From positions 11,243 to 75,242 of the IMG/VR virus record IMGVR_UViG_3300042553_000326: a stretch of 64,000 bases of DNA; one strand, 5' to 3'. The position numbers and the translations under genes are program-made. Position 1 is the first letter of the stretch, and every line of letters begins with the position of its first letter. The notes beneath the pieces are model-generated. The model made no database searches and was not told the origin of the DNA. It was given only the letters and a program-made list of their open reading frames with translations. This DNA is from a virus. This document shows positions 1 through 63,957 of the stretch, piece by piece.

Positions 1-3000
1 ACGCAAATGATCCGTTAGTCACCAGATCAGTACCAACCAAGGTCTCCGCTACGGTATCGGCCAGCCATGCGCCTTTGATTGCGCCTACTTGCCAGCCGGA
101 GTTAAAGTCCTTGGTTACGTAGGCGACCATACCTTTCGATGGGGTCGATGGGTTGCGCTTGAAAATGTTCAGCCCAAGCTCTGTCCCGATTGCTTCGGGT
201 ACGGCAACAAGCTGCGTGCCGACTCCACCGCGATAGCTCAAGTCTGGCACACTGGCGAAAGCGCCGTTGTCGTAGAACTCAAGCGAAGTGTTCTTGGTGG
301 TGTAGACGTGGGTTGTGTCTGCTGTTGGAATCGCATCAACACGAACACTACGCCGGGTTCCGTTTCCGTCATTCTCGAACATGATGGTTTTCTCGGGCGT
401 GAAGGCCACCATGAAACAGTAGGCCGCGCCACCATCCGGCACGATGTCCCACACGCTGCCGGTATCGGTGATAACGCTTACACCACCTGCCGTAGCCACC
501 GCAATCGTAGGCACAGGTAATCCTGTAGCGACATCGACCGGGGCGTTGGGTAGGACGGTCATGGCGACATCATTAATCTGCGAGGAAATTACAGGCTTTG
601 TTAATAGACTATTTACGCCATACCCACTCGCAGAATTACGAGCAGCAATATTTCCTTTATACACACCACCTTCGGACGTATACTGTGGATCCATCCTATA
701 CACGAATTCAGAGATGAAGTTAATAACCGGTGCTCCATAAGAGTCCGATCCAGTATTATGAACCTCCACAAGGGTGCCGTTTAACATGGCTACAGAGCGT
801 GCTGTTGATAGAGTTTGAACCATATTGACTGTTACCATGCCCTGCGAGCCAGCTGCAAACACCATCCACATCGGTGCATTCGCCTGTGTCAAGTCGTGGA
901 TAACTACTCTATAAGAGTCAGCTGTGATAAGTGCCTTCGCTGGAAACTTTCTAGCATTGCCACGGTATACTAACGTAACCCCACTACCAGCGTTAAGGCT
1001 ATACCACCAATTTGAAGTACTATCGTAATAGTAACTTCCTGTTGTGGCTCCAGCAATCGCTCTGGCTGCCGCCTCATTAACCGCTACACCTAGCCAGCTA
1101 CCTGCAAGGGTTTCATTTTCCCAGCTAGTATGACTACAGCGATGCCGCCATGCACCACCATCGCTATCCTTCTCGGTGTCATATAAGAATACATCTAAGA
1201 TAGCATATGTGCTTAACAATCTGTCAACCGCCACAGAGGTTATGTCAGTCGTAGACAGAGAGCCTGTAACAGCGGCCCCTGTAGGGGTCAGCGACACTGT
1301 CTTAACGCCACCCGCGTACAGGTCCATTACGTTAGCGCTTGACTCGACTATGTAAGTGTCACCGCCGCCGTCAAGATAATGCTTCATTGTGGAGGCTTGT
1401 ACCAGATTCTTCGCCAGGCCCATTCCGCCACTAACCACAAGTGCGCCGGTGGTGGTGGAGGATGAGTTGGTTGTGTCGTGGAGGGTAGCTATGACGCTGG
1501 CAATGCCTGTTCGAGAGAACGATAGAGCCGTCAGTCCGTTAGTGCGTGCATCGTTGAATGCGCGAATCCGGAATATTCCATCACCGACAGCTGTACCAGA
1601 CTGAATACCCCACCGCTTTTGATCCACAGATGCCGATGCGTTGTATAACTCCATAACGCTGTTCGTGGCATTACCAAGAATTAGCGTTGAAGTTGTTGTA
1701 TCACTTAATCCACCGAGCCATGTGCTCTTCGCCACCGCCAATCCACCAGCCGTCTTGAGCGATGCTGCGGCGCTGCTGGTGGCGTCTGTGGTGTCGAGGA
1801 CGGAGAGAACGCCCAAGGTTTCTAGGCGAGTGGTCCCTGTTGGTATTTGAGCTACTGAGCTACCAATGGAGTTGGCAAGAACAAAGTCGTGTGTTGATCC
1901 AGCACCGCTGACAACCATACCGCCTGTGGCTGATCCGTTAATCTGCCACCCACCGGCGGATGGTGCTGAATACGTACCTGATGTTCCAGACAACCTTCCA
2001 ATGAAATCAACCCCACTTCCTGTCGCAGCCAAGCGCTCAACCAATCCACCGTCTTTGATATAGACACGCTGCGTTCCGGTACTGGTGAAACCCATTTGGA
2101 ATGAGTTAGCTACTGTAGACATCGTTATTGTGGCATCAGCAGTACCACGCAATGTCAGACGACCGACACCATTCGAACCAGTAGTACCCAGGTCTGCGCC
2201 GATGTTGCTGCTAATAAATCCTGTAGCACTCAGCGTCCCGGTGACTGCGAGGCCAGCATCTGTAAGCGTCAACACAGGAGTAGTGAATGACGTTCCACCT
2301 ACCGTGCTAGACGGGGTAAATTCCAAGGCTCCTGCTGTTGTACCGTTTGTCCCGATCAGCCAATTCTTAACTGTGTTGGAGTAAATCATGCGAAGCTGTG
2401 CGGAAGAATTTACAGAAGGGGATGTCGGCCCCATCTGTAGGGAACTACCGCCTGTCGTCGTGTTGGAGACATAAACGCTGTCACCGAAGTACGCCTTCTT
2501 CGCCACCCCCAATCCGCCCGCCGTCTTGAGCGATGCTGCGGTAGTGCTGGTGGCGTCGGTGGTGGAGATGATTGCTATGTCGCCAGTTGATGCGTTGATG
2601 GTTAGACGCGATACAGACGCTGTGCGGAAATTAAGGTCTTGGGCGTCCATCGTACCGATGGTGCCGTTATTGATAATTTGAACACCCGAGGTTCCAACAA
2701 CACCGGCTGTAATCTGACCGGCGGATGTCGTGATGTTATTTGTCGCCGAGAGCGCTCCGGTGACGGTGAGGCCGGTAGACGACAAACGCATCTGCATTGC
2801 TGCGCCATTGTTAGCAGAGAAGGCTATACCGGAAGGGCCACGTAAGATAGTGTCATAACCTGTTGCGCCTACTATGAGGTTATTGCCACCTGTGCTATTC
2901 TCCATCCCGAAGATGGCGTTACCACCTGTATTAGTTAGCTGGATGGCAGTGTAGCCTGTCGACACGTTAGTTGAACGTAATGCAAGTGTGTTATTACCGC

Positions 3001-25542: not shown

Positions 25543-28500
25543 TTATCCGATCCCGTACCAGTACAAATTCTTATCGAACTTATGCTCAATAGGTTTCAGA
25601 ATGTCTTCTCTTGTGAGGATATCCTCGATTTGCAATACTTTACCACCAACAACAGAACGACCAGGCACTGGAATAAGTCCTGTGTCGATAGCCTCATTGA
25701 GATATTGGTCATACAGATCCTTAGGCAAACCTCTTGCACGCATCTCATTCAGTGTGTGCAGGATAACGTTAGACTCTAAAGATTCAGCATATATCTCTCT
25801 AAGTGCATCCCTTGCCTTCAGCATGTCAGCAGCGTTCGACAAGAACGCATCATGAACAGTTGAAGTATCTATGTTATTCCTTCTTCCCCATAGATGATAT
25901 TTCTTTACTAATACAGCATCGTTACTGTGGTTAGTGTTAACCCCGAAAGCTGTCTTAGCTTTGTTTAAATCAGCGATATCCTGCATAGTATCAGACTTAT
26001 TTCTAATCTCTTGCCACCATGTAGGATCGGTCTTCTGTTTAACCTGAACGATATTCGTTATCCACTCACCATCCTTACTTTTGTACAATAGTTTTTCCTC
26101 GAAAGACTGTGTGAACTTTTGTTCAACAACCTTTCCATCGAAATTAACTACAGGTACATTAGTCCAGTTCTTAGGTAATTTATTTGGATGCAAAACATCG
26201 AATCCACCAAACAGATTCTCTTCTATATCGCCTAACTTAAACTTTACCTTTCCAAGGTTCTTACCTGTTACACGATCTATAGGATCTTTAACTCCGAATA
26301 CAATATCAGAGAATGTACTATCAGGTTTGAACCAAGGTATTCTTTTTAGAAGTTTCTCGCTAAGAGATTCAGATGCTTTAGTACCTAGTATTTCGGCTGC
26401 TAGTGGTGACAACTTATCACCAGAGCTGTAATTACCAAATACCATCTGTCTCGCGATAACTGCAAAGTCTAATGAGGATTGCGATGGCTTAGCACTGGTT
26501 AGGAAATCAGCTGCTAGTCTACCAAAGAACTTAGTGAAGCCTTTTAGAATAGGGACTTCTTCAGATAAGTTTTCACTCATTATATTTGCTATTAATTTAA
26601 AGTCATCAGGAGTGACGACCTTATTGTAATTTCTAGACATCTTCTCTACGAGATCATACGTCTTAGGTTCAAGGAACCAAAGTTCCTCAAGAATGTCATC
26701 CCCAGGATCGATACCTTTATTGAAGATGTCCTTCACGTCTTGTCGTAAACTCTTAAGTTCAGCAGCTGTATCAGGATCAAACCTTTCGAATCTAGCTGCA
26801 CGAGCACTTATCTGCTCTAATACAGTGTCTCTATCCGAAGCCTTAACCACTAGGGTCGAGTCTTGTTTATCTAATGCTTTAGCCAACTTAGTTTCTACGT
26901 TGATAATACCAGTACGTTCACCTGCTCCGTAGAAGGTCACCATGTTTTGAGCTTTAGCAGCCTTACGTAGATCTTTTTCCGTTAAGCCTAACTTTTGATT
27001 AAGCTTAATGAATCTTGGGTCATCGAAGGTTCTTGCTGCAATCTCATCGTACAAACGTTTCTTCTGATTGGTTGGTACTACATTAGATAACTCAGCCAAC
27101 TGCTTATTTTTAGTTGTGAGTGCAATGATCTGAGCGCCAGACGACGATGCATCCTGCTCAAGAGCTATTGCTATCTTGTAATCACTTAGCTTAGCTAAAG
27201 ACAGCTTATCATATTTCCCATCAAGGAAATTATGTATTTTAGCTGCTTCAAGTGACAGTCTAAGAGCCTTACCGAGGTCTTCACCATCTATCTCTTGGAC
27301 AAACTTAGAATCCAGCACAGCTCTAATGTCACCTGGCTTACCACGTAGAATGTGATTACCAATCTTAACCATCTCAGGGCGTAATTCTGATGCTATCAGC
27401 TGTCTACCTGTGACGGATAATGAGTTATGTCTACCTTCGAACTTATCAGAAAGTCCACCTAGAAATCCACCTATCTGATCATTTAGGTTCCTCCATCCAG
27501 CTTCACTGAATGGCTTTGCTTCCTTACTATTTAAGAAAGGTCTAAATGATTCACCAGATTGAGGCCCAATAAAGCCTCTTTCGTAGATACGTGCACGGTG
27601 ATCTAGGAATGGTATATTACTGAACGAAGCATTCTTCTTTCTGAGCCAATCCATTACTTTGAATCGCTCATAGGCATCGCCACGCTCTACCATGTATTCG
27701 CGGTAGGTATTCAACTCATTGTAATGTTTAGCGCGACCTTTATCGTCTTCAAACAACATCAGCTTATTGATGAAATCATAGAACTCATTATCGATACGAT
27801 ATTCAGTCCTACCTGCCCAATTAAGAGCTTGTGTCATCGACTTATCAATTAATGCCTCTGGAAAGTCGGCAAAGGAGTCTGTAGACGTTATAGGTATGCG
27901 GGTATCGTAATAACCTAGAACACCTTCGTCTATGAAATACGTTTTGTAACCCTCTCTAATAATTAAACGGTTTCGCGCATCGATTGGTGTGACACGGATA
28001 CCTACATCTACTTTTCTAGTTAACTTAGAGTAGTCTTGGATGCGTTTATCGACAATACGAAGATGCACAGAGAATGTATCATAAGCAGGACCAAAGTATT
28101 TATTACTATTCTTACTCTTCATCCGCCTCTTCTGAACACCAAAGGTTTCTAACTCGTAGAATCCCTTTCCTTTTGCATCGTCTAACAGTTTAACACCAAG
28201 CTTCCACCACTCTTGTCTACTGCCTCTGTAGTTAGCTAGATTATAGAGATCACGTCCGATTGCTACAGCGAGCTGATCCCTATCAGGACCATCTGCCAGA
28301 GCTAATCTGTTTGCAAACTTAAGATAGAATTGCTTTTTCTGAGGTTCTTCTAGGCGAACTAATAGTTTTAAAGGAATTTTCCTATCCAACACGTTACGCA
28401 ATTCTCTAGCGATCTTCGGTAAGGTTTTATCTTCCCATTTATTCTTTCGTTTTATATTAGCTAGGAACTCATCATGAAGCTCGTCTAGTTGGCTAGGTCC

Positions 28501-30177
28501 AAGAACTGGATCTAGAAAGTTATCTTGCTTCAACCGCTGAAGTAACCCTGTATTGCGCCTCAGCTGTGTCTCCATGAAGTCCGACACGTTCATCACATCA
28601 AACTTCATCTGTCCATTGAGGACTGCCTTAAGATTCTGCCAAGGCTCTTTATTGTTTCTAAACCTGGTAAATGTAATTCTAAGATTCTCTGTGACAACAG
28701 CTCTCTCATTAGAACTCATTTCATCTTCAAGCTTATCTACAAACTTTATGATGAAGTCTTTATCAGCTTGCTTAAGGTCTGCACTCTCATTAACTAACCT
28801 ATAACTGTTACTCAATACTGAAGGATTGGGCTGAAATACACGGCTATCCTCGTATCGTCCCGTTAAGGGGTTGAATAATAACTGATCTTCATTAGGTGGT
28901 GTAGATAGAATTCTAGTCTTACTAGCTTTCTTAGTGCCTAGCAGATTACCTCTATAGTTCGTAAGTGATAACGTACCTTCTAAGTCCCTAGACTGCAGCA
29001 GGTAATACTCTTTAAGTGCCTTCTGCAATTCAGTAGATGCAAGTATCTCATCAGGCCTTGATGCACCTAACTTAAGTACATCTAATCTTTCCTTTGCAGC
29101 AGCAAACTTCATCGTATCACCAGGTAAGCCTATACCTGAGGTAGTCATTCTGCGAAGCTCAGCAATACCTACTTCTTTACCAGAAGGATTAGTGAATTTA
29201 TCCACAGTAAGCTGTCCACTTCTAAACATATTCAGTCTAGTGGTATCACCAAGGTGTCTAAGCTGGACTTCAGTAGGTTGACGTTGTAACCACTCACTAT
29301 AGGACTCTTTTAGTGGTGATTGTCCGTCGTAGTAAGCGATTTGCTTAGCTGTGAGACCCTCTAGATTACGTTTTCGAATTTGGGCAATATTCTCGAGTGA
29401 ACCCAAGTCGCTATAGCTTTTGACAATAGGTACAGTGGTACTCCTGCAATGAAAATGAGCAGGAGGCAAATGAGATACATCACTAATAGGATACACAGTG
29501 CCATCGCGATGACGGCAAATAGGGGTAGTTCTAGAATCGAGAACAGCAACGTACTGCCAACCTCTAAGGACTTTCTCATTAGCTTTATAGACCTCATGAT
29601 CTGTTTGTGAACGAACCGAGGTCATAGCAGTTCTTACTAAGCCTAATGACTGATTCATTGAGATATCAAGGACGTTACCTTTACGTATGGACAACGCAAT
29701 AGCCTTTTCATCTAGCCCTTGTGCAATACCATTACGTATTACAGCTTCTAATCGTTTACGCTCGGAGAGGCTTACTGTATTCCAGCCTTCGAGCAGTGTA
29801 ACATCATTGTAGATAGGACGCTTTAACACAATGTCTTCAGCTATACGATATTGTGGCTTAGATGTGCGCCATATCTTACCAACAGCATTATCCAACTGTT
29901 GATAAGTGTAGGATATTTGGCTGGATACTAAGTCAAGTAAAGATCTAGAGCTTACATTATATGCTTGCCCATAGGTCTTTCTTAATAGCACATCTATCTC
30001 TTCCATCATCTTAGGTGACATAGACGCCTTATTACGCAAGATGATATCATCTATCTTCGTCTTATGGCCATTGACAATGGTGTATATCTTACCAGATACA
30101 CGCTCCTCGTACAACCTCATCATTGCAGCTCTGTCTACAATATTATCGTATAGAGCTGTATTCACATTTTGTTTCAT
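25543..30177 (-). CDS. Minor head (SPP1 gp7/Mu gpF-like) protein fused to a T7-family DNA-dependent RNA polymerase
   Basis: N-terminal WQYVAVLDSRTTPICR..DG...PPAHFHCRST; C-terminal DHRARIY, motif A EQDASSSGAQ, motif B RKAAKAQNMVTFYG, motif C HSNDA...VHDAF. Confidence 0.9.
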   Translation of the reverse strand: MKQNVNTALYDNIVDRAAMMRLYEERVSGKIYTIVNGHKTKIDDIILRNKASMSPKMMEEIDVLLRKTYGQAYNVSSRSLLDLVSSQISYTYQQLDNAVGKIWRTSKPQYRIAEDIVLKRPIYNDVTLLEGWNTVSLSERKRLEAVIRNGIAQGLDEKAIALSIRKGNVLDISMNQSLGLVRTAMTSVRSQTDHEVYKANEKVLRGWQYVAVLDSRTTPICRHRDGTVYPISDVSHLPPAHFHCRSTTVPIVKSYSDLGSLENIAQIRKRNLEGLTAKQIAYYDGQSPLKESYSEWLQRQPTEVQLRHLGDTTRLNMFRSGQLTVDKFTNPSGKEVGIAELRRMTTSGIGLPGDTMKFAAAKERLDVLKLGASRPDEILASTELQKALKEYYLLQSRDLEGTLSLTNYRGNLLGTKKASKTRILSTPPNEDQLLFNPLTGRYEDSRVFQPNPSVLSNSYRLVNESADLKQADKDFIIKFVDKLEDEMSSNERAVVTENLRITFTRFRNNKEPWQNLKAVLNGQMKFDVMNVSDFMETQLRRNTGLLQRLKQDNFLDPVLGPSQLDELHDEFLANIKRKNKWEDKTLPKIARELRNVLDRKIPLKLLVRLEEPQKKQFYLKFANRLALADGPDRDQLAVAIGRDLYNLANYRGSRQEWWKLGVKLLDDAKGKGFYELETFGVQKRRMKSKNSNKYFGPAYDTFSVHLRIVDKRIQDYSKLTRKVDVGIRVTPIDARNRLIIREGYKTYFIDEGVLGYYDTRIPITSTDSFADFPEALIDKSMTQALNWAGRTEYRIDNEFYDFINKLMLFEDDKGRAKHYNELNTYREYMVERGDAYERFKVMDWLRKKNASFSNIPFLDHRARIYERGFIGPQSGESFRPFLNSKEAKPFSEAGWRNLNDQIGGFLGGLSDKFEGRHNSLSVTGRQLIASELRPEMVKIGNHILRGKPGDIRAVLDSKFVQEIDGEDLGKALRLSLEAAKIHNFLDGKYDKLSLAKLSDYKIAIALEQDASSSGAQIIALTTKNKQLAELSNVVPTNQKKRLYDEIAARTFDDPRFIKLNQKLGLTEKDLRKAAKAQNMVTFYGAGERTGIINVETKLAKALDKQDSTLVVKASDRDTVLEQISARAARFERFDPDTAAELKSLRQDVKDIFNKGIDPGDDILEELWFLEPKTYDLVEKMSRNYNKVVTPDDFKLIANIMSENLSEEVPILKGFTKFFGRLAADFLTSAKPSQSSLDFAVIARQMVFGNYSSGDKLSPLAAEILGTKASESLSEKLLKRIPWFKPDSTFSDIVFGVKDPIDRVTGKNLGKVKFKLGDIEENLFGGFDVLHPNKLPKNWTNVPVVNFDGKVVEQKFTQSFEEKLLYKSKDGEWITNIVQVKQKTDPTWWQEIRNKSDTMQDIADLNKAKTAFGVNTNHSNDAVLVKKYHLWGRRNNIDTSTVHDAFLSNAADMLKARDALREIYAESLESNVILHTLNEMRARGLPKDLYDQYLNEAIDTGLIPVPGRSVVGGKVLQIEDILTREDILKPIEHKFDKNLYWYGIG

Positions 30178-38236: not shown

Positions 38237-38313
38237 TGGTCTCTCGAGATGGAATCGAACCATCGACCAACCGCTTAGAAGGCGGTTACTCTTATCCGCT
38301 GAGCTATCGAGAG
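38237..38313 (-). tRNA. tRNA-Arg(TCT)
   Basis: Cloverleaf; anticodon loop CTTCTAA, GGTTCGATTCC, encoded CCA. Confidence 0.93.
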
Positions 38314-38771
38314 TATACTGTATATTTATCGATAAGATTGTTGTCTACTGCAGACTGCATTTCTTCTGACAACCCGTCTAACTGGGCCTTTCTAGAAAAT
38401 TTACCACTACAACTCCTAGAACAGAATACACCGTATTTCTTAACGGCTGTTTGAAATGCCTGTCTGTAGCTACGTTCGAATACGCATTTGCACTGTGGGC
38501 ACTCTAATAAACAAGTCAAGACACCCTGCTCATAACCATGCATTCTCATATGCTCGATGCGATCCATAACCTGAAGATTATCTACACTATTATCCCGCTT
38601 GTCATGATTTTTATGATGCACAATCTCTTCGGACGTAAGTAATCTGCCTAATTTATTTTCCATAATGATTCTGTGGTGAAACACATAGCCTAACACAGTA
38701 GCATTTGGGTGGTCCGGCACTTTAGCGTAAATATAGTCGCCTTTTGAGACAATACCTTGTATTATCCACAT
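38304..38771 (-). CDS. HNH endonuclease with C-terminal Zn finger
   Basis: YVFHHRIIME..LGR.L...EIVHHKNHDKRDN..DNL; CPQC...FCSRSC. Confidence 0.85.
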   Translation of the reverse strand: MWIIQGIVSKGDYIYAKVPDHPNATVLGYVFHHRIIMENKLGRLLTSEEIVHHKNHDKRDNSVDNLQVMDRIEHMRMHGYEQGVLTCLLECPQCKCVFERSYRQAFQTAVKKYGVFCSRSCSGKFSRKAQLDGLSEEMQSAVDNNLIDKYTVYSR

Positions 38772-38803
38772 AACGATCTCTTTCTGTAAATGGTTAGCGT
38801 AAG

Positions 38804-38962
38804 TTAATATTCCTGATAATCTTCAGGGTAAGGCTGTGGTGGACCGCTGTAGAATGGATTCTTGTACCACACATCTCTGTCGGACAGTATCCAGGCTAGA
38901 TCAGGACGATCCCTACCAACATTTAATGCGTATTCCCTGTCCGCTTGCTCTTCAAAGGACAT
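38804..38962 (-). CDS. Small hypothetical protein (52 aa, not in the track)
   Basis: MSFEEQADREYALNVGRDRPDLAWILSDRDVWYKNPFYSGPPQPYPEDYQEY fills the gap exactly. Confidence 0.55.
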   Translation of the reverse strand: MSFEEQADREYALNVGRDRPDLAWILSDRDVWYKNPFYSGPPQPYPEDYQEY

Positions 38963-38969
38963 ATTTAAT

Positions 38970-39533
38970 CTACTTATAGTAGATAAAGACGCCGTTTCTG
39001 GATTTTTGAGAGGTACCTACAACACCTGCCCCGAATACGTCCTTACAGGCGTTCTTAACCGCAGTGCCGAAGGCTCTAAGTGGAGTATCTGGTGGGGTGA
39101 AGAAGAACATTGACTCACCTGGCGCTAATTTAGCCACCTTGATATTCAACTTCTCCTTTAAGAAATTATACTGTTCAGCTTTAGGAGTGGGTGCTTTCCT
39201 ATTCTTAGGGGACGCTCTTTTACTAATTAATTTCAGCGGCTCCTCAACTATTTTTATCTTGCGCTCAATATCTACCGCGAGCTCCTTCTTCTTAAACTGT
39301 CTGTCCATGTACCTTATCTGACTCTCAGTCCTTGCATCCATTTATTGACCTTGCTCCGTCTCGATCATAGCATCGTGAATGTACTTATGTTGCGCATTCA
39401 ATGCTGAACGAATAGAGTCGTTCTCGTTCTCACTAATGAAGATTTCGCCTTTTCGATCGATCATTGCAATTTCCCAACCAAGCTTACGAATTACTGCAGC
39501 TGCTTCTGTTGCGGTTTCAAATTCTTTATCCAT
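38970..39533 (-). CDS. Two hypothetical genes (38970-39341 basic, possibly DNA-binding; 39342-39533)
   Basis: Packed ORFs with plausible RBS. Confidence 0.55.
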
Positions 39534-39563
39534 TTTTATTTCTCCGTTTGTAATATGTGGGGG

Positions 39564-39635
39564 TTCCCTATGTCTGGATCAAACAGACGACCTATCGCTT
39601 ACAAGGCGATTGCTCTGTCACTGAGCTAATAGGGA
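39564..39635 (-). tRNA. tRNA-Thr(TGT), atypical T-loop, no encoded CCA
   Basis: TCCCTAT/ATAGGGA acceptor, ATCGC-CTTGTAA-GCGAT anticodon arm, T-loop TTTGATC. Confidence 0.8.
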
Positions 39636-39717
39636 ATAGATCGGTTAACCTTAAAGCCGATACCATGCACCGAAAGGTCTGGCATCCGCGATACGTAGGT
39701 GTATCACTCCTAAACGG

Positions 39718-39791
39718 TGGCCCCTGTTGGACTCGAACCAACAACCAAAGGATTATGAGTCCTCTGCTCTCACCAATTGAGCTAAAGGGCC
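39718..39791 (-). tRNA. tRNA with CAT anticodon, most likely Ile2 (lysidine); ends CCG rather than CCA
   Basis: GGCCCTT acceptor and CTCATAA loop, resembling E. coli ileX rather than tRNA-Met. Confidence 0.85.
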
Positions 39792-39798
39792 GTACTAC

Positions 39799-40700
39799 TT
39801 AATCGCGCTGCATGAAGTCGCCAAGAGACATCGACACACCGGCGTAGTTACTGCCACGACCCCAGGGAGCATATTTATTACGCTCCAGAGACCTCCAGTC
39901 GACACACGAGATGCGAACCTTTCCATGGTACTGCGGAAAGCCCTCTTTGGCATTGGGATGCGGGACACAAGCCAGATTGCGCTTCGTCATCTTAACAACC
40001 ATGTTCGGATTAAACATTTACAGCTCCTTCTGATTTAACGTAACCTCTGATATAGAACTTAAGACGTTCTTCATCTTTCTTAAGCTCCGCTTCTGTAGCT
40101 CTGAAATCAGGATTCAGTATTGCAAACCCTTTATCCCACAGCTCAGGTGTCATACACATTGTTCTGAATATGAAACCCTTATGCACAACAGTGACGCAAC
40201 GAATACTCGCCATTTCTGAGTCTCCTGTTAGCCTTCAATTTGCTGAGTTCATGCGTGTAGACCTCATTCTCAAATATTGCCAAGAGGTCTGCCTTACTAC
40301 TAAGACCATGCTTCACATTCATAATCCAGGTCTTACCATGAACATGCCTGAAGATGTCTTTCTCCCACGTTAGTACGTAGTTACCCTCAGCGGTAATACC
40401 TAGAATACGATACTCGGTTCCGATGCGATGCTTCTTTTGCGTTGTAAATTTCTTGGTATTGATGTCCACGGTAATATCCTCATGCGTTAAACTACGTTAT
40501 TTATTAAACCACACAACATGTGTTGCCCAGGAGGGCGTAGCCCACCAGCAACTACTTTTAGCGTCGTAGAACTCAGAATTGGCAAAGTATCCGACACCGT
40601 CGTCTTCCACAAACTCGCCTTCATCTACTGCTTCGCTGAACTCTTCCACAGTGAAGACATCACAATGCTCTTCAGAGGGAATTACACATGGTTTTTCCAT
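39799..40700 (-). CDS. Four small hypothetical genes (39799-40017, 40010-40213, 40179-40469, 40497-40700)
   Basis: Overlapping or packed minus-strand ORFs. Confidence 0.55.
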
Positions 40701-40713
40701 AATACTCCTTTAG

Positions 40714-40798
40714 TGGTCCGAGGAACGGGAATCGAACCCGTATAGCTATCGCTGGCAGATTTTAAGTCTGCTGTGTCTACCAATTTCACCACCCTCGG
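40714..40798 (-). tRNA. tRNA-Leu(TAA)
   Basis: GCAGA-CTTAAAA-TCTGC anticodon arm, long variable arm, GGTTCGATTCC, encoded CCA. Confidence 0.93.
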
Positions 40799-60346: not shown

Positions 60347-60800
60347 TCACTCTTTAAACGCCGAATCCCATTCCTCATCAGTTGAGCCAGTCATAATGAA
60401 CTCACGGTCTGATGGAGATAGGTGTGGCATGACATTTTGAATCAAACCGCCTGCTTCCCACTGCTGAAGTTGCTCTTCTGTTACATCAATCTCCTTGGTA
60501 CGCACAATACCAGAGATCATACTACGCTTTGTTATCTGCATTTGTATATCCCGTCATTCAAATTTGCTCATCATATAACTCCCAGAAGTAGCCTCCTGGT
60601 CCACAGTTATCCCTAAAGGATCTAGCATCAGAAGCTGGTGAAGTATTGTTCTGAGCTGCCGCTAGTGCTTTAGGATCTTTTGCTACAACATTCGGGTGAC
60701 AACAATTCAGATAAGTAGCACCCTGGACGTTCACCGCCCATTTACAATTTCGACACAACCTTAATATTGCAAGTTTTATCTCAGGCAAAGCAGTACTCAC
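60347..60800 (-). CDS. Two small hypothetical genes (60347-60541, 60558-60800)
   Basis: LIQNVMPHLS..DREFIMTG....W; Cys-rich ORF. Confidence 0.55.
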
Positions 60801-63764
60801 TTTCTATTATCTGCTGAATGTCTAATACACCGAAGTCGACTCTGCTGATATCAGCGTGTATACATTCGAAGATTTGGTGTATCGGATTCTCAGAATACAT
60901 CTGTACAAATGTCTCTCTAACCTTCACATATAGGTCTGGCATGTCCGCTAACAAACAACCAAAGCTGTCATGGATTGTCGTTATAGGAAAGTCGCACGCT
61001 TCGATAGTAAGCATTAAGTGTGCTGCATCTAGACTATGAATGATATTTGGAGATGCACCTTGGGATTGTTTACGTTTTGATGGTTTAGTCTCCTCGATAA
61101 TACTGATGTTAACCTGGTATGTGTTTTCGAAATAGCCCGTGGATTGAATCTGACCTAATGGCGGACCATATTGAATCCACACCTTCTTTACTACACCTTC
61201 AATGTAATACTGCATTACTGGAAAGTTTGTCGCTGGAACGGTCCACTGAAGAAATCTACTCTCTTCTTCAGCTAGCTTTCCTGCCTCCTCAAAGATGGCC
61301 AACAGTTGCATTGGCCTCTTTAAGGCTGACTTACAAGTGTCAAACACCATACGACCCATGTAAGCTCCCCAACGATTCTCTAGGAAGTTTAATACAGCAA
61401 TACCGTGTTTTCTTGCATCTGATAGCTGCTGCTCACCGAGTCCATAGGCAGTTCCACCATAAGGGATTGTCATAACATTCAATGTGTTAATAATTACTCG
61501 CTAGGTAATCACTAATCTAATTTCGCGAATTCACCGTATCTATCCAAAGCTACCTCACAATATTTAGCATAAGCTACCTCCGGGTCGATAAAGAAGCCTA
61601 GAAACTTATTTTTCCCATCTATCTTTATTTGTGCTACCCATTTTTGCTTCTGCTTGTGCCATGAGACACCTTTAAATCCACTCTTATTATTCGCCTGTTT
61701 GCCTCTATTAAAATGATTTTGTTGAAATGTACATACACGTAGATTTTCCAGTTTGTTATTATACCTACAACCGTCTATATGATCTATAACAAGACCATCT
61801 GGAATCTTACCATTATGCATTTCCCATATCACTCTATGCGCGAATAAATATTTACCTTCAAAGTAGATACCAATGTATTCATCATCACGTAAGGACCCAG
61901 CTAAGTCTCCATCTTTCATCCATTTAGCTGGTGCCTTTAGCCAATATAGCTCACCGTCCCGATAACTGAAAAGATTATTATAATCCATTATTTCTCCGAA
62001 ATTAAATTACTGCATGTCACCATGCAGATCAGACTATATCATCATTGCCATTTAGACAATGGAGTGCGCTTCGAACAGGCTTCTGTTCTACTCCCTTGCG
62101 GGATAGTCGTTGCACCTTACGCTAACGCGTCTTGGCTCAGGATTGACTCAACGAGTTGTTCCCTGAATTCACACTCTTTTAAAAGCGCCATGTTAATAAC
62201 GCTTTGAAATCTTCCTTCGCTGCTTCGCGTCTGTGATACGACTCCAGAAGATGCAGCTAGACGTCATTTCCAATATATCCTTGTGAGCCTTCTTAAAGTC
62301 ATGCAATTCACCAACCATGTTGGCACGACGATCACTCTTCAAAGGTTCTTTAGATATGTTCTCCTTTATAATGAGCAACTCATCGATTACATCAGAACCT
62401 AGCTCATACAGGTCTCTCTGCAGTTTGTTGACATCTTGGTTAATCATTTCCCATACCTTCTCTGATACATACTTATAGAGATCACCGGGCATCTGGGATG
62501 GTGTTAGATTAACGTGTGGTGCTGTTGATTCATCGCGAGTTAATGCAGTTAGATGTTGTGAACCGTTTGTACTACCGTCTATATAAACCTCCATATGAGA
62601 TTCATAATCATATTCTCCAATAACATCTTTATGTAAATCATACACATTCATTTGCCATACTCTGAAGTTGTATAATTCACGGCATGCTGCAAGGAATTGC
62701 CACGGTTTATCTGCTTGCATCCAACCCTGATTTAACTTAGGGTTATCAGCATAAGCAAGGAATATTTCCTCATTATCTTCTGCCCACCGAATTCTATCTC
62801 TCAGTGGTATCTTATCAGTCTTGGCACCATCTTCCCTACCTGAATCACCAGCCCAATTATTTGCTATACTGATACACAACCATTCAAATCCACTCTTTCC
62901 AATGCATTTTGAATCGTCTCTGAGTAGAAGACCTTTAGCGAGATCACTCCCTTGCTCGTGGAAGTAAGCTGTGGCAGGGTAGATTCTACCTCTAAAGTCA
63001 CAGTAATAAAGATGGTAGAAAGTTTTTCCTATGAAGTTACTTGCTATGTCACCTACTGCTTTTGCTTCTCGAAGCTTACTAGCCTTTGCTTCGGGGTTCT
63101 GCATACACCAAATATCAGCGAAGGCATCCGTCTTATTACGTAAAGCCCATTGATACAAATTGAAGATGAACTCATTTACACGCCACCCAACATGTTGCTT
63201 CTTATTTAGCACACTAAATATTACAGGATGCTTCTCAGGATTCACCTTGTCAAGCAATTCCTGATTGTTGGTCTTTATGATTCGCATACCAGTCATATGT
63301 CTACTGGTTGTCCAATCAGAGTATGGCTCTATTGAAGGAAGCTTCTCCGTTTTAGCAGAGCTAAGTTTACTCCACATCTCAGATAGTGAATCCTCGTTAA
63401 GGATTTCTATAACATATACACCGTGGTTGTTAGTACCACGTTGATATGACAACTGTAATATAGATTCCTCCTCGAAGGAATATAGAATGAAGGCTCCAGT
63501 CTTAGCAGCAACTGCTGACTTTCTTGGCATGTTATATCGAGTCCTAATAGCATGACCGATACCACAAATCACTTCTGAGAATAAAGCTTTCTTCGTTGGA
63601 TTCGATTTCGTTGTCCTAGAATATAAGTAGATTGTTGATATCGCAATATCTATGTAGTCTTCTATGACTAGTTCTTTTAGATAGCGTATCGTATCTCTAT
63701 TAGATACTTCGGAGTTGAGTCGATTACGAATTGATTCTACGATTCTATTTTGTGTAGGTGTCAT
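60781..63764 (-). CDS. T7-family RNA polymerase, spliced (exon 1 63764-62199, exon 2 61479-60781; about 754 aa)
   Basis: DFRGRIY, QGSDLAKGLL, PWQFLA, motif A DGSTNGSQH, motif B rejoined as RKISKR|NVMTIPYG, SPNIIHSLDA, IHDSF, C-terminal YCFA. Confidence 0.93.
61480..62198 (-). mobile_element. Group I intron (719 nt) in the RNAP gene
   Basis: P1 AAGCGU/GCGCUU with a U-G pair at the splice site; P3 GAGUGUG/CGCACUC; core elements GAAUUCAGGGAA, AAUCCUGAGCCAAG, UGCAACGACUA, GAUAUAGUCU; terminal G at 61480; P10 pairing. Confidence 0.92.
61512..61988 (-). CDS. Intron-encoded HNH homing endonuclease with AP2-like C-terminus
   Basis: AHRVIW...IDHIDG.R.NN..ENLR; NKSGFKGVSW...KW.AQI...LG.F. Confidence 0.9.
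   Translation of the reverse strand: MDYNNLFSYRDGELYWLKAPAKWMKDGDLAGSLRDDEYIGIYFEGKYLFAHRVIWEMHNGKIPDGLVIDHIDGCRYNNKLENLRVCTFQQNHFNRGKQANNKSGFKGVSWHKQKQKWVAQIKIDGKNKFLGFFIDPEVAYAKYCEVALDRYGEFAKLD

Positions 63765-63923: not shown

Positions 63924-63957
<34 letters not shown>

Follow-up and report, generated by a model that had tools for sequence, protein, structure and literature searches.

A group I intron that carries an HNH homing-type endonuclease interrupts the gene for a T7-type single-subunit RNA polymerase (RNAP), here called RNAP2, in the genome of an uncultured phage. The DNA analysed (the window) is a stretch of 64,000 nucleotides (nt) that comprises bases 11243-75242 of the 75,242-bp IMG/VR virus record IMGVR_UViG_3300042553_000326, which is rated complete by CheckV, and lake-water metagenomes hold DNA of this phage. 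The 719-nt intron lies on the minus strand, as do all the genes near it, and sits in a free polymerase gene that heads a block of replication genes. Sequence analysis confirms the group I intron as genuine and the enzyme that it encodes as an endonuclease of the homing type, and we estimate a probability of roughly 0.88 that the intron is a mobile, self-splicing element. The anatomy of the intron, its exact junction, the covariation of its helices and the pattern among related polymerase genes are all directly observed, and they form the basis for the argument given below.

The two coding parts of RNAP2 are arranged as follows.

62199..63764, minus strand: RNAP2 exon 1, 522 codons (open reading frame (ORF) list, Pfam RNA_pol match of 121 bits, T7 mapping)
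60781..61479, minus strand: RNAP2 exon 2, 232 codons plus stop, starting NVMTIPYGG (Pfam RNA_pol, T7 mapping)

In the unspliced sequence these parts appear as two minus-strand ORFs, 63764..62193 (523 amino acids (aa)) and 61482..60781, both of which match Pfam RNA_pol (PF00940) at consecutive profile positions (2-143 on exon 1 and, with 101 bits, 162-370 on exon 2). Exon 1 contains a DxRGR-type motif and a motif A that reads YIDGSTNGSQH, in which D396 corresponds to T7 D537, and it ends in ...RRKISKR, where K521 and R522 are the equivalents of T7 K631 and R632. Exon 2 supplies Y529 (T7 Y639), the sequence HDSFG (T7 H811-D812) and a C-terminal YCFA that resembles FAFA of T7. Joining the exons by script yields a T7-type single-subunit RNAP of 754 aa whose codons are free of stops and frameshifts throughout, and in which motifs A, B and C are present and the equivalents of D537, R627, K631, Y639, H811 and D812 are all kept. 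The alignment of this protein with the RNAP of 90 related IMG/VR loci is one gap-free block, and the protein is likewise colinear with most of 25 loci from JGI metagenomes and with the RNAPs of T7 and of roseophage DSS3_VP1 (Naomviridae, 32% identity). With hyphens marking the junction, KISKR-NVMTIPYGG matches K(I/V)VKR-NxMTLPYGG of the relatives and VTKR-SVMTLAYGS of T7.

In T7 numbering the intron falls between the codons for R632 and S633, one codon past K631 and six before Y639, and the insertion point is thus inside motif B (the O-helix) of RNAP2. In T7 RNAP, the O-helix is the nucleotide-binding helix, and K631 and Y639 have their roles within this motif. There is no purine-rich ribosome-binding site upstream of exon 2. 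Because the break separates the equivalents of K631 and Y639, because exon 2 lacks a ribosome-binding site of its own, and because the catalytic residues are intact only when the exons are ligated, the sequence supports the view that the RNAP2 protein can be made only by splicing, which is a dependence that the initial annotation of this DNA had proposed. As a separate observation, a run of approximately 33 T residues is present on the coding (minus) strand at 63924..63956, about 160 nt ahead of the start codon of RNAP2, where it became visible through poly-Phe and poly-Lys ORF translations.

The intron and its component parts are listed here, with the window coordinate of any intron nucleotide equal to 62199 minus its intron position.

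61480..62198, minus strand: group I intron, assigned to type IA, 719 nt (Rfam RF00028, colinear exon joining)
62010..62198, minus strand: ribozyme core, intron nt 1-189 (cmscan, unconstrained minimum free energy fold, RNAalifold)
62183..62204, minus strand: P1, formed by exon AAGCGU (62204..62199) plus intron UAU, and by intron AUGGCGCUU at nt 8-16 (62191..62183)
P2: absent, the model P2 positions being deleted in the cmscan alignment
Intron nt 23-29 and 131-137, minus strand: P3 (cmscan and fold)
Intron nt 32-38 and 57-63, minus strand: P4 (cmscan and fold)
Intron nt 43-46 and 50-53, minus strand: P5 (cmscan and fold)
Intron nt 63-85, minus strand: P6-P6a (cmscan and fold)
Intron nt 91-95 (GACUA) and 163-167 (UAGUC), minus strand: P7, invariant in sister introns
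Intron nt 96-107, minus strand: P7.1, UCCC-GCAA-GGGA with a GCAA loop
Intron nt 111-126, minus strand: P7.2, GAACAG-AAGC-CUGUUC
Intron nt 138-156, minus strand: P8 (cmscan and fold)
Intron nt 172-189, minus strand: P9, with a GUGA loop
61512..61988, minus strand: HNH_3 plus AP2-like homing endonuclease, 158 aa, intron nt 211-687 (Pfam, PHROG, I-HmuI alignment)
61480..61511, minus strand: intron 3' tail, 32 nt, with a hairpin AUUAC...GUAAU, then ...UUAACACAUUG and the terminal G
61473..61478, minus strand: exon-2 strand of P10, AUGUUA, pairing with intron nt 4-9, UAACAU (62195..62190)

A cmscan search aligned the full RF00028 model (positions 1-253) to 62208..62010 on the minus strand with a score of 86.4 bits (E 1e-20; gathering score 50 bits), and this is the only match to the model in the 75-kb genome. 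Exon 1 ends ...AAG ATT TCA AAG CGT, with T62199 (U in RNA) as its last base, and the intron opens with UAU UAA, such that an in-frame UAA at 62195..62193 halts translation of the precursor two codons in. The intron ends with ...UUAACACAUUG and terminal G61480, and from 61479 exon 2 begins with the codons AAT GTT ATG ACA ATC CCT TAT GGT. The P1 pairing, which was found by both the cmscan alignment and the unconstrained fold, has a duplex energy of -6.9 kcal/mol and joins U62199, at the splice site, to the G of intron nt 11 as a U·G wobble. P10 comprises 6 bp (-5.7 kcal/mol) that involve exon-2 bases +2 to +7, and its intron strand lies directly 5' of the P1 guide strand. The unconstrained fold also returned P3-P6a, P7.1, P7.2, P8 and P9, and folding resolved only some of the structure that surrounds the ORF in the P9 region. 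A candidate long-range helix across the endonuclease ORF, pairing the spacer before the ORF with the 3' tail, reached only -3.9 kcal/mol and was dropped. By its sequence, the intron is assigned to subgroup IA, the type usual among phage introns, from the pair P7.1 and P7.2 that separates P7 from the 3' strand of P3. The initial annotation had called a group I intron with these same ends, with exactly placed splice sites, identifiable P1, P3, P7, P10 and core elements, a location within motif B of a phage RNAP, and an HNH ORF 3' of the core. This description has held in every part: the covariance model score exceeds its cut-off, colinear homologues agree with the junction to the base, the helices are recovered by cmscan, folding and duplex energies, the T7 alignment sets the position, and the ORF starts just past P9.

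After P9, a stretch of 21 nt with the ribosome-binding site GGAG (61997..61994, 5 nt before the ATG) leads into the endonuclease gene. The predicted protein matches Pfam HNH_3 with 69.2 bits (cut-off 24.8), has a C-terminal domain with a weak AP2-like match, and is a member of the large phage HNH family PHROG 99 (211 bits). Its HNH residues (DH...NN...N) are kept, and the sequence IDH...NN...NLR...QN can be aligned to the motif of I-HmuI (1U3E), the sole relative with a solved structure, to which the similarity (E 0.003) is confined to the HNH motif. More closely related, at 44-51% identity, are free-standing HNH genes of Salmonella and Escherichia coli siphophages. Elsewhere in the window there is a second, free-standing HNH_3 ORF (38304..38771, minus strand; 155 aa, 43.7 bits) that abuts a tRNA gene at 38240..38313, in a cluster of four tRNA genes spanning 38240-40798.

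Our census of RNAP2 homologues among metagenome and viral contigs uncovered seven other interrupted genes along with approximately 100 that are uninterrupted. The interruptions fall at five sites, one of them probable, which are given with the loci that carry them.

Site A, between the codons for T7 R632 and S633: the window, L121 (722 nt, Rfam 83.7 bits, intact endonuclease) and L101 (295 nt, Rfam 58.1 bits, endonuclease deleted to ...YGEFAKLD and a stop)
Site B, inside the Y639 codon (T-AT), +19 nt from A: L012 (720 nt, 80.3 bits)
Site C, after R647, +45 nt from A: L101 and L107 (84.2 and 78.5 bits)
Site D (probable), four to five codons upstream of the DxRGR motif: L100 (the contig end cuts the intron)
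Site E, between T7 G538 and S539, one codon past the catalytic D537: L121, L123 and L124 (67-88 bits)

The site-E introns (at L121:3161-4148 and L124:886-1647, for example) sit in motif A between YIDG and STNG, and in L121 such an intron occurs together with the one at site A. Two introns are also found in L101 (3589-4644), where they surround a 45-nt micro-exon that codes for NVMTLPYGGTAYGLG, and the three exons join into a clean protein of 762 aa. The site-A intron of this locus retains only about the last 22 codons of the endonuclease, and its site-C endonuclease reads IDRID where relatives read IDHID, such that an Arg replaces the catalytic His. The partial intron of L100 (1-662) apparently lies just before YYFDFRGR, and its 3' end, ...AACACAUUG, is as in the sister introns; the tail motif of the window intron recurs in L101, L121 and L100. 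The core sequences of the sister introns are 69-81% identical to that of the window, the upper value being that for site A of L121. Their endonucleases are more diverse: the motif-B enzymes of the window, of L012 and of L101 site C share only about 40% identity with each other, and the 185-aa HNH enzyme of L100 (PHROG 59, 19% identity) has a different architecture with a C-terminal helix-turn-helix.

When four sister introns were analysed with RNAalifold and no prior structure, 41 pairs were predicted, with compensatory changes on both sides in 22 of the 41. The program recovered P3, P4, P5, P7.1, P7.2, P8 and P9, and the compensatory changes are found in these helices. The pairing of P7 is consistent in this alignment, where its sequence is invariant and thus offers no variation to score as covariation. 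P1 was left out of the count, since its register differs between insertion sites, and was checked intron by intron instead. In each case the guide sequence matches its own 5' exon (AAGCGU with GGCGCUU at site A, CUUCCGU with GCGGAAG at site B, and UUGGGU with GCUCAA at site C).

These data suggest the following course of events. The gene would be transcribed as one precursor, on which a ribosome translating exon 1 would stop at the UAA near the start of the intron. Once the core has folded, exogenous guanosine would attack after U62199, held by the U·G pair of P1, and the guide sequence would align exon 2 through P10 for attack by the freed end of exon 1 after G61480. Ligation of ...KISKR to NVMTIPYGG... 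would then restore the O-helix and permit synthesis of the 754-aa polymerase. The HNH enzyme, a distant relative of I-HmuI, would be made from a gene that lies past P9 and has a ribosome-binding site of its own. Its most likely target is the intron-less motif-B DNA of related phages that co-infect the same cell, which it would nick, and repair would copy the intron into the nicked gene (homing).

Several comparisons bear on this last step. Different stages of a homing cycle coexist in the clade: endonucleases are intact in the window, L121 and L012, deleted at site A of L101, and deprived of the His at site C of the same locus. In a tree of 84 RNAPs the intron bearers are scattered, with four label changes for four rows, which is no improvement on a random shuffle of the labels. 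When the window is compared with L121, the endonucleases are 70% identical in aa sequence and the whole introns 73% identical in nt sequence, and the host RNAPs are 60% identical in aa sequence, with 58% and 67% nt identity in the two flanking 300-nt exon segments. Because the intron and its endonuclease are more conserved than the essential host gene, the sequences fit a common ancestor for these two introns that is younger than the split between their hosts. The insertion sites are located in well-conserved DNA, as illustrated by the 30-nt segment centred on site A, which ranks 106th of 2,233. In most alleles the sequence that precedes site A is AAA AGA, and the P1-matching sequence AAGCGT is present in six of 72 distinct alleles; both site-A carriers in that set fall among these six, and L121, from outside the set, has AAAGCGT. 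This flank pattern fits either the need for a 3' U and guide pairing or co-conversion of the flank. The earlier proposal that the intron is probably mobile by homing thus gains support, at the level of sequence, from the sporadic distribution, an intact copy at the same site, a decayed copy, and an intron that is more conserved than its host.

Metagenomic data speak to the natural state of the allele. In an independent lake study, contigs that are 100% identical to the window span both splice sites, and the allele with the intron therefore exists stably in nature. A 36-nt stretch from P7 to P9 (window 62009..62045) has 97% identity with introns of various phages, among them phi92-like and T4-like ones. 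In four lake metagenomes this 36-nt core stands out with about 10-fold higher contig depth and many different flanking sequences, and we conclude that many unrelated lake introns share it and that assemblies break there. No contig joined across the intron was found in these four metagenomes, where fragmentary contigs break at the 36-nt core and so are uninformative on absence. Two apparent exon joints in lake contigs proved to derive from a different organism with a similarity of about 82%.

It is important to consider explanations in which the two halves of the gene are never joined. The exon-1 reading frame ends in a stop, and an ORF over exon 2 can be drawn from a TTG at 61482. Furthermore, heterodimeric T7-type polymerases exist (N4 gp15/gp16), and so the halves might function as separate subunits of the N4 RNAP II type with a free-standing endonuclease gene between them. 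We judge this to be very improbable. Exactly at the break sits a complete ribozyme whose P1 and P10 are placed so as to ligate the halves in frame, the break is inside the O-helix between K631 and Y639 and not between domains, exon 2 has no ribosome-binding site, the roughly 100 uninterrupted homologues are continuous at the break point, and an equivalent arrangement in L101 would leave a middle piece of 15 residues. It is harder still to credit that the insertion has inactivated RNAP2 and left the phage to rely on a second T7-type polymerase. The genome does encode such a polymerase domain, which occurs in a 1544-aa ORF at 25543..30177 (minus strand) with two weak Pfam RNA_pol matches of 25.7 and 17.2 bits. 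However, the exons of RNAP2 contain neither stops nor frameshifts and have lost no catalytic residue, and the ribozyme core is undamaged, with a score on a par with those of the sister copies.

A different question is whether an intron that splices might no longer move. The element could be an old vertical resident whose endonuclease is inactive or has been repurposed, with the patchy distribution a consequence of repeated precise loss. We consider this unlikely, although several points weigh against mobility and in its favour. In our metagenome scan there was no near-identical intron-less allele that would attest recent homing, the best RNAP being 59% identical. Many forks of the RNAP tree are unresolved and the window is on a long branch, and such a tree would be compatible with an ancient intron that has suffered many losses. 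Structural constraint on the ribozyme could explain part of the higher conservation of the intron, and both the endonuclease deleted at site A of L101 and the His loss in its site-C enzyme show that decay occurs in the family. More generally, splicing in vivo, nuclease activity and homing are inferred here from DNA. On the other side, the endonuclease ORF of the window runs its full length, keeps the HNH residues and is preceded by a good ribosome-binding site, the intron and this enzyme have changed less than the essential gene around them in the comparison with L121, and sister introns at five sites would require repeated movement. We therefore favour a mobile, self-splicing intron.

Elements of this kind are already known, and our addition is a modest one, consisting of a rarely reported host gene and a clade-wide picture with five sites, of which two are co-occupied in some genes. 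Group I introns with HNH endonucleases in the catalytic motifs of phage genes are textbook examples of mobile elements, and HNH nicking endonucleases of the I-HmuI family are encoded by DNA polymerase introns of phages SPO1 and SP82 (I-HmuI and I-HmuII) and Bastille (I-BasI). T7-like phages are also reported to have DNA polymerase introns. The RNAP2 intron resembles those of the Bacillus phages and T7-like phages in that an IA ribozyme with an HNH ORF occupies a catalytic motif of a gene for a polymerase with the family-A fold, and in that related phages have introns at nearby but different sites. It differs in its host gene, in its weak I-HmuI match, and in the AP2-like C-terminal domain of its endonuclease, for which nicking is only predicted.

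In ribozyme architecture, the intron is similar to the T4 nrdD (sunY) intron and the IA2 lineage of T-even phages and phi92, with an ORF after P9, both P7.1 and P7.2, and a P7-P9 stretch of 36 nt that matches the phi92 nrdD intron at 97%. Unlike the T4 nrdD intron, whose enzyme I-TevII is of the GIY-YIG type, it has no P2, carries an HNH_3/AP2 enzyme and interrupts another gene. Three group I introns are said to reside in one gene, orf142, of Staphylococcus phage Twort. The polymerase genes described here likewise have several related introns, with two each in L101 and L121, although the multiplicity is spread across a clade and five sites and at most two introns were seen per gene.

Our literature search produced no paper that describes a group I intron within the gene for a T7-type single-subunit phage RNAP, and a 2014 review mentions RNA polymerase nowhere, in agreement with the expectation of the initial annotation that this is a less usual host gene. 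A 100-aa motif-B query matched only 10 records in a phage collection, too few to be informative. The Naomviridae roseophages, which are the only cultured relatives of this RNAP, have an uninterrupted RNAP gene. Their terminase large-subunit gene does contain a related intron core with 69% identity (DSS3_VP1, MN602266.1, 5248-5417). Among the closest relatives of the intron in cultured phages, of which our examination was non-exhaustive, none is in an RNAP gene. The closest such copy, in Vibrio phage JSF38 (L020, 1496-4234; 79% identity), has a 477-nt ORF and splits two ORFs of about 340 aa each that are termed hypothetical proteins, in a record that annotates no intron and has an intact RNAP gene upstream. 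Four other candidate precedents were set aside: the split gene is DNA polymerase A in Acinetobacter phage KEN_02 and Aeromonas phage HJ05, thymidylate synthase in Vibrio phage 1.097.O, and in Klebsiella phage RCIP0053 a gene without T7 RNAP similarity or Rfam hit.

A functional parallel is provided by jumbo phages. The HNH nickase gp210 of PhiPA3, encoded in a putative group I intron in the gene for the virion RNAP beta subunit, nicks the homologous gene of PhiKZ and confers a competitive advantage (Birkholz et al. 2024, PMC11620839). Like the putative group I intron of PhiPA3, which is grouped here with the RNAP introns of phiKZ, Goslar and AR9, the RNAP2 intron bears an HNH gene and interrupts catalytic-site codons of a phage RNAP gene. 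The polymerase in PhiPA3 is a multi-subunit (beta/beta-prime-like) enzyme of a jumbo phage, whereas here it is the T7-type single-subunit enzyme of a 75-kb phage, and the competitive role demonstrated for gp210 is hypothetical for the RNAP2 intron. By analogy, its nickase might be a weapon between co-infecting lake phages that nicks motif B of RNAP2 in intron-less relatives and so cripples their middle and late transcription. We regard this as conceivable, yet on balance rather unlikely.

If such a role does exist, the three sites within 45 nt and the two in other catalytic motifs would record an arms race in which an occupied or recoded site protects its carrier, and intron-mediated interference would extend from the multi-subunit polymerases of jumbo phages to the T7-type polymerases of environmental phages. 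The parallel with the 2024 work, where the endonuclease of an intron in a phage RNAP gene was found to act in inter-phage competition, is testable. There are also consequences for annotation, given that gene callers would list a pair of truncated RNA polymerase ORFs plus a stray HNH gene in place of a single 754-aa enzyme. If the polymerase of the 1544-aa ORF is packaged and transcribes the early genes, then the output of RNAP2 would require both that transcription and splicing. More broadly, T7-type RNAP genes join those for DNA polymerase, ribonucleotide reductase and multi-subunit RNAPs as genes whose catalytic motifs are targets of mobile group I introns. One uncultured phage clade presents the full homing cycle, with intact, endonuclease-deleted and His-lost copies alongside empty sites and five targets. 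These five sites offer a natural set of related nickases, presumably differing in specificity, around a very well-studied active site.

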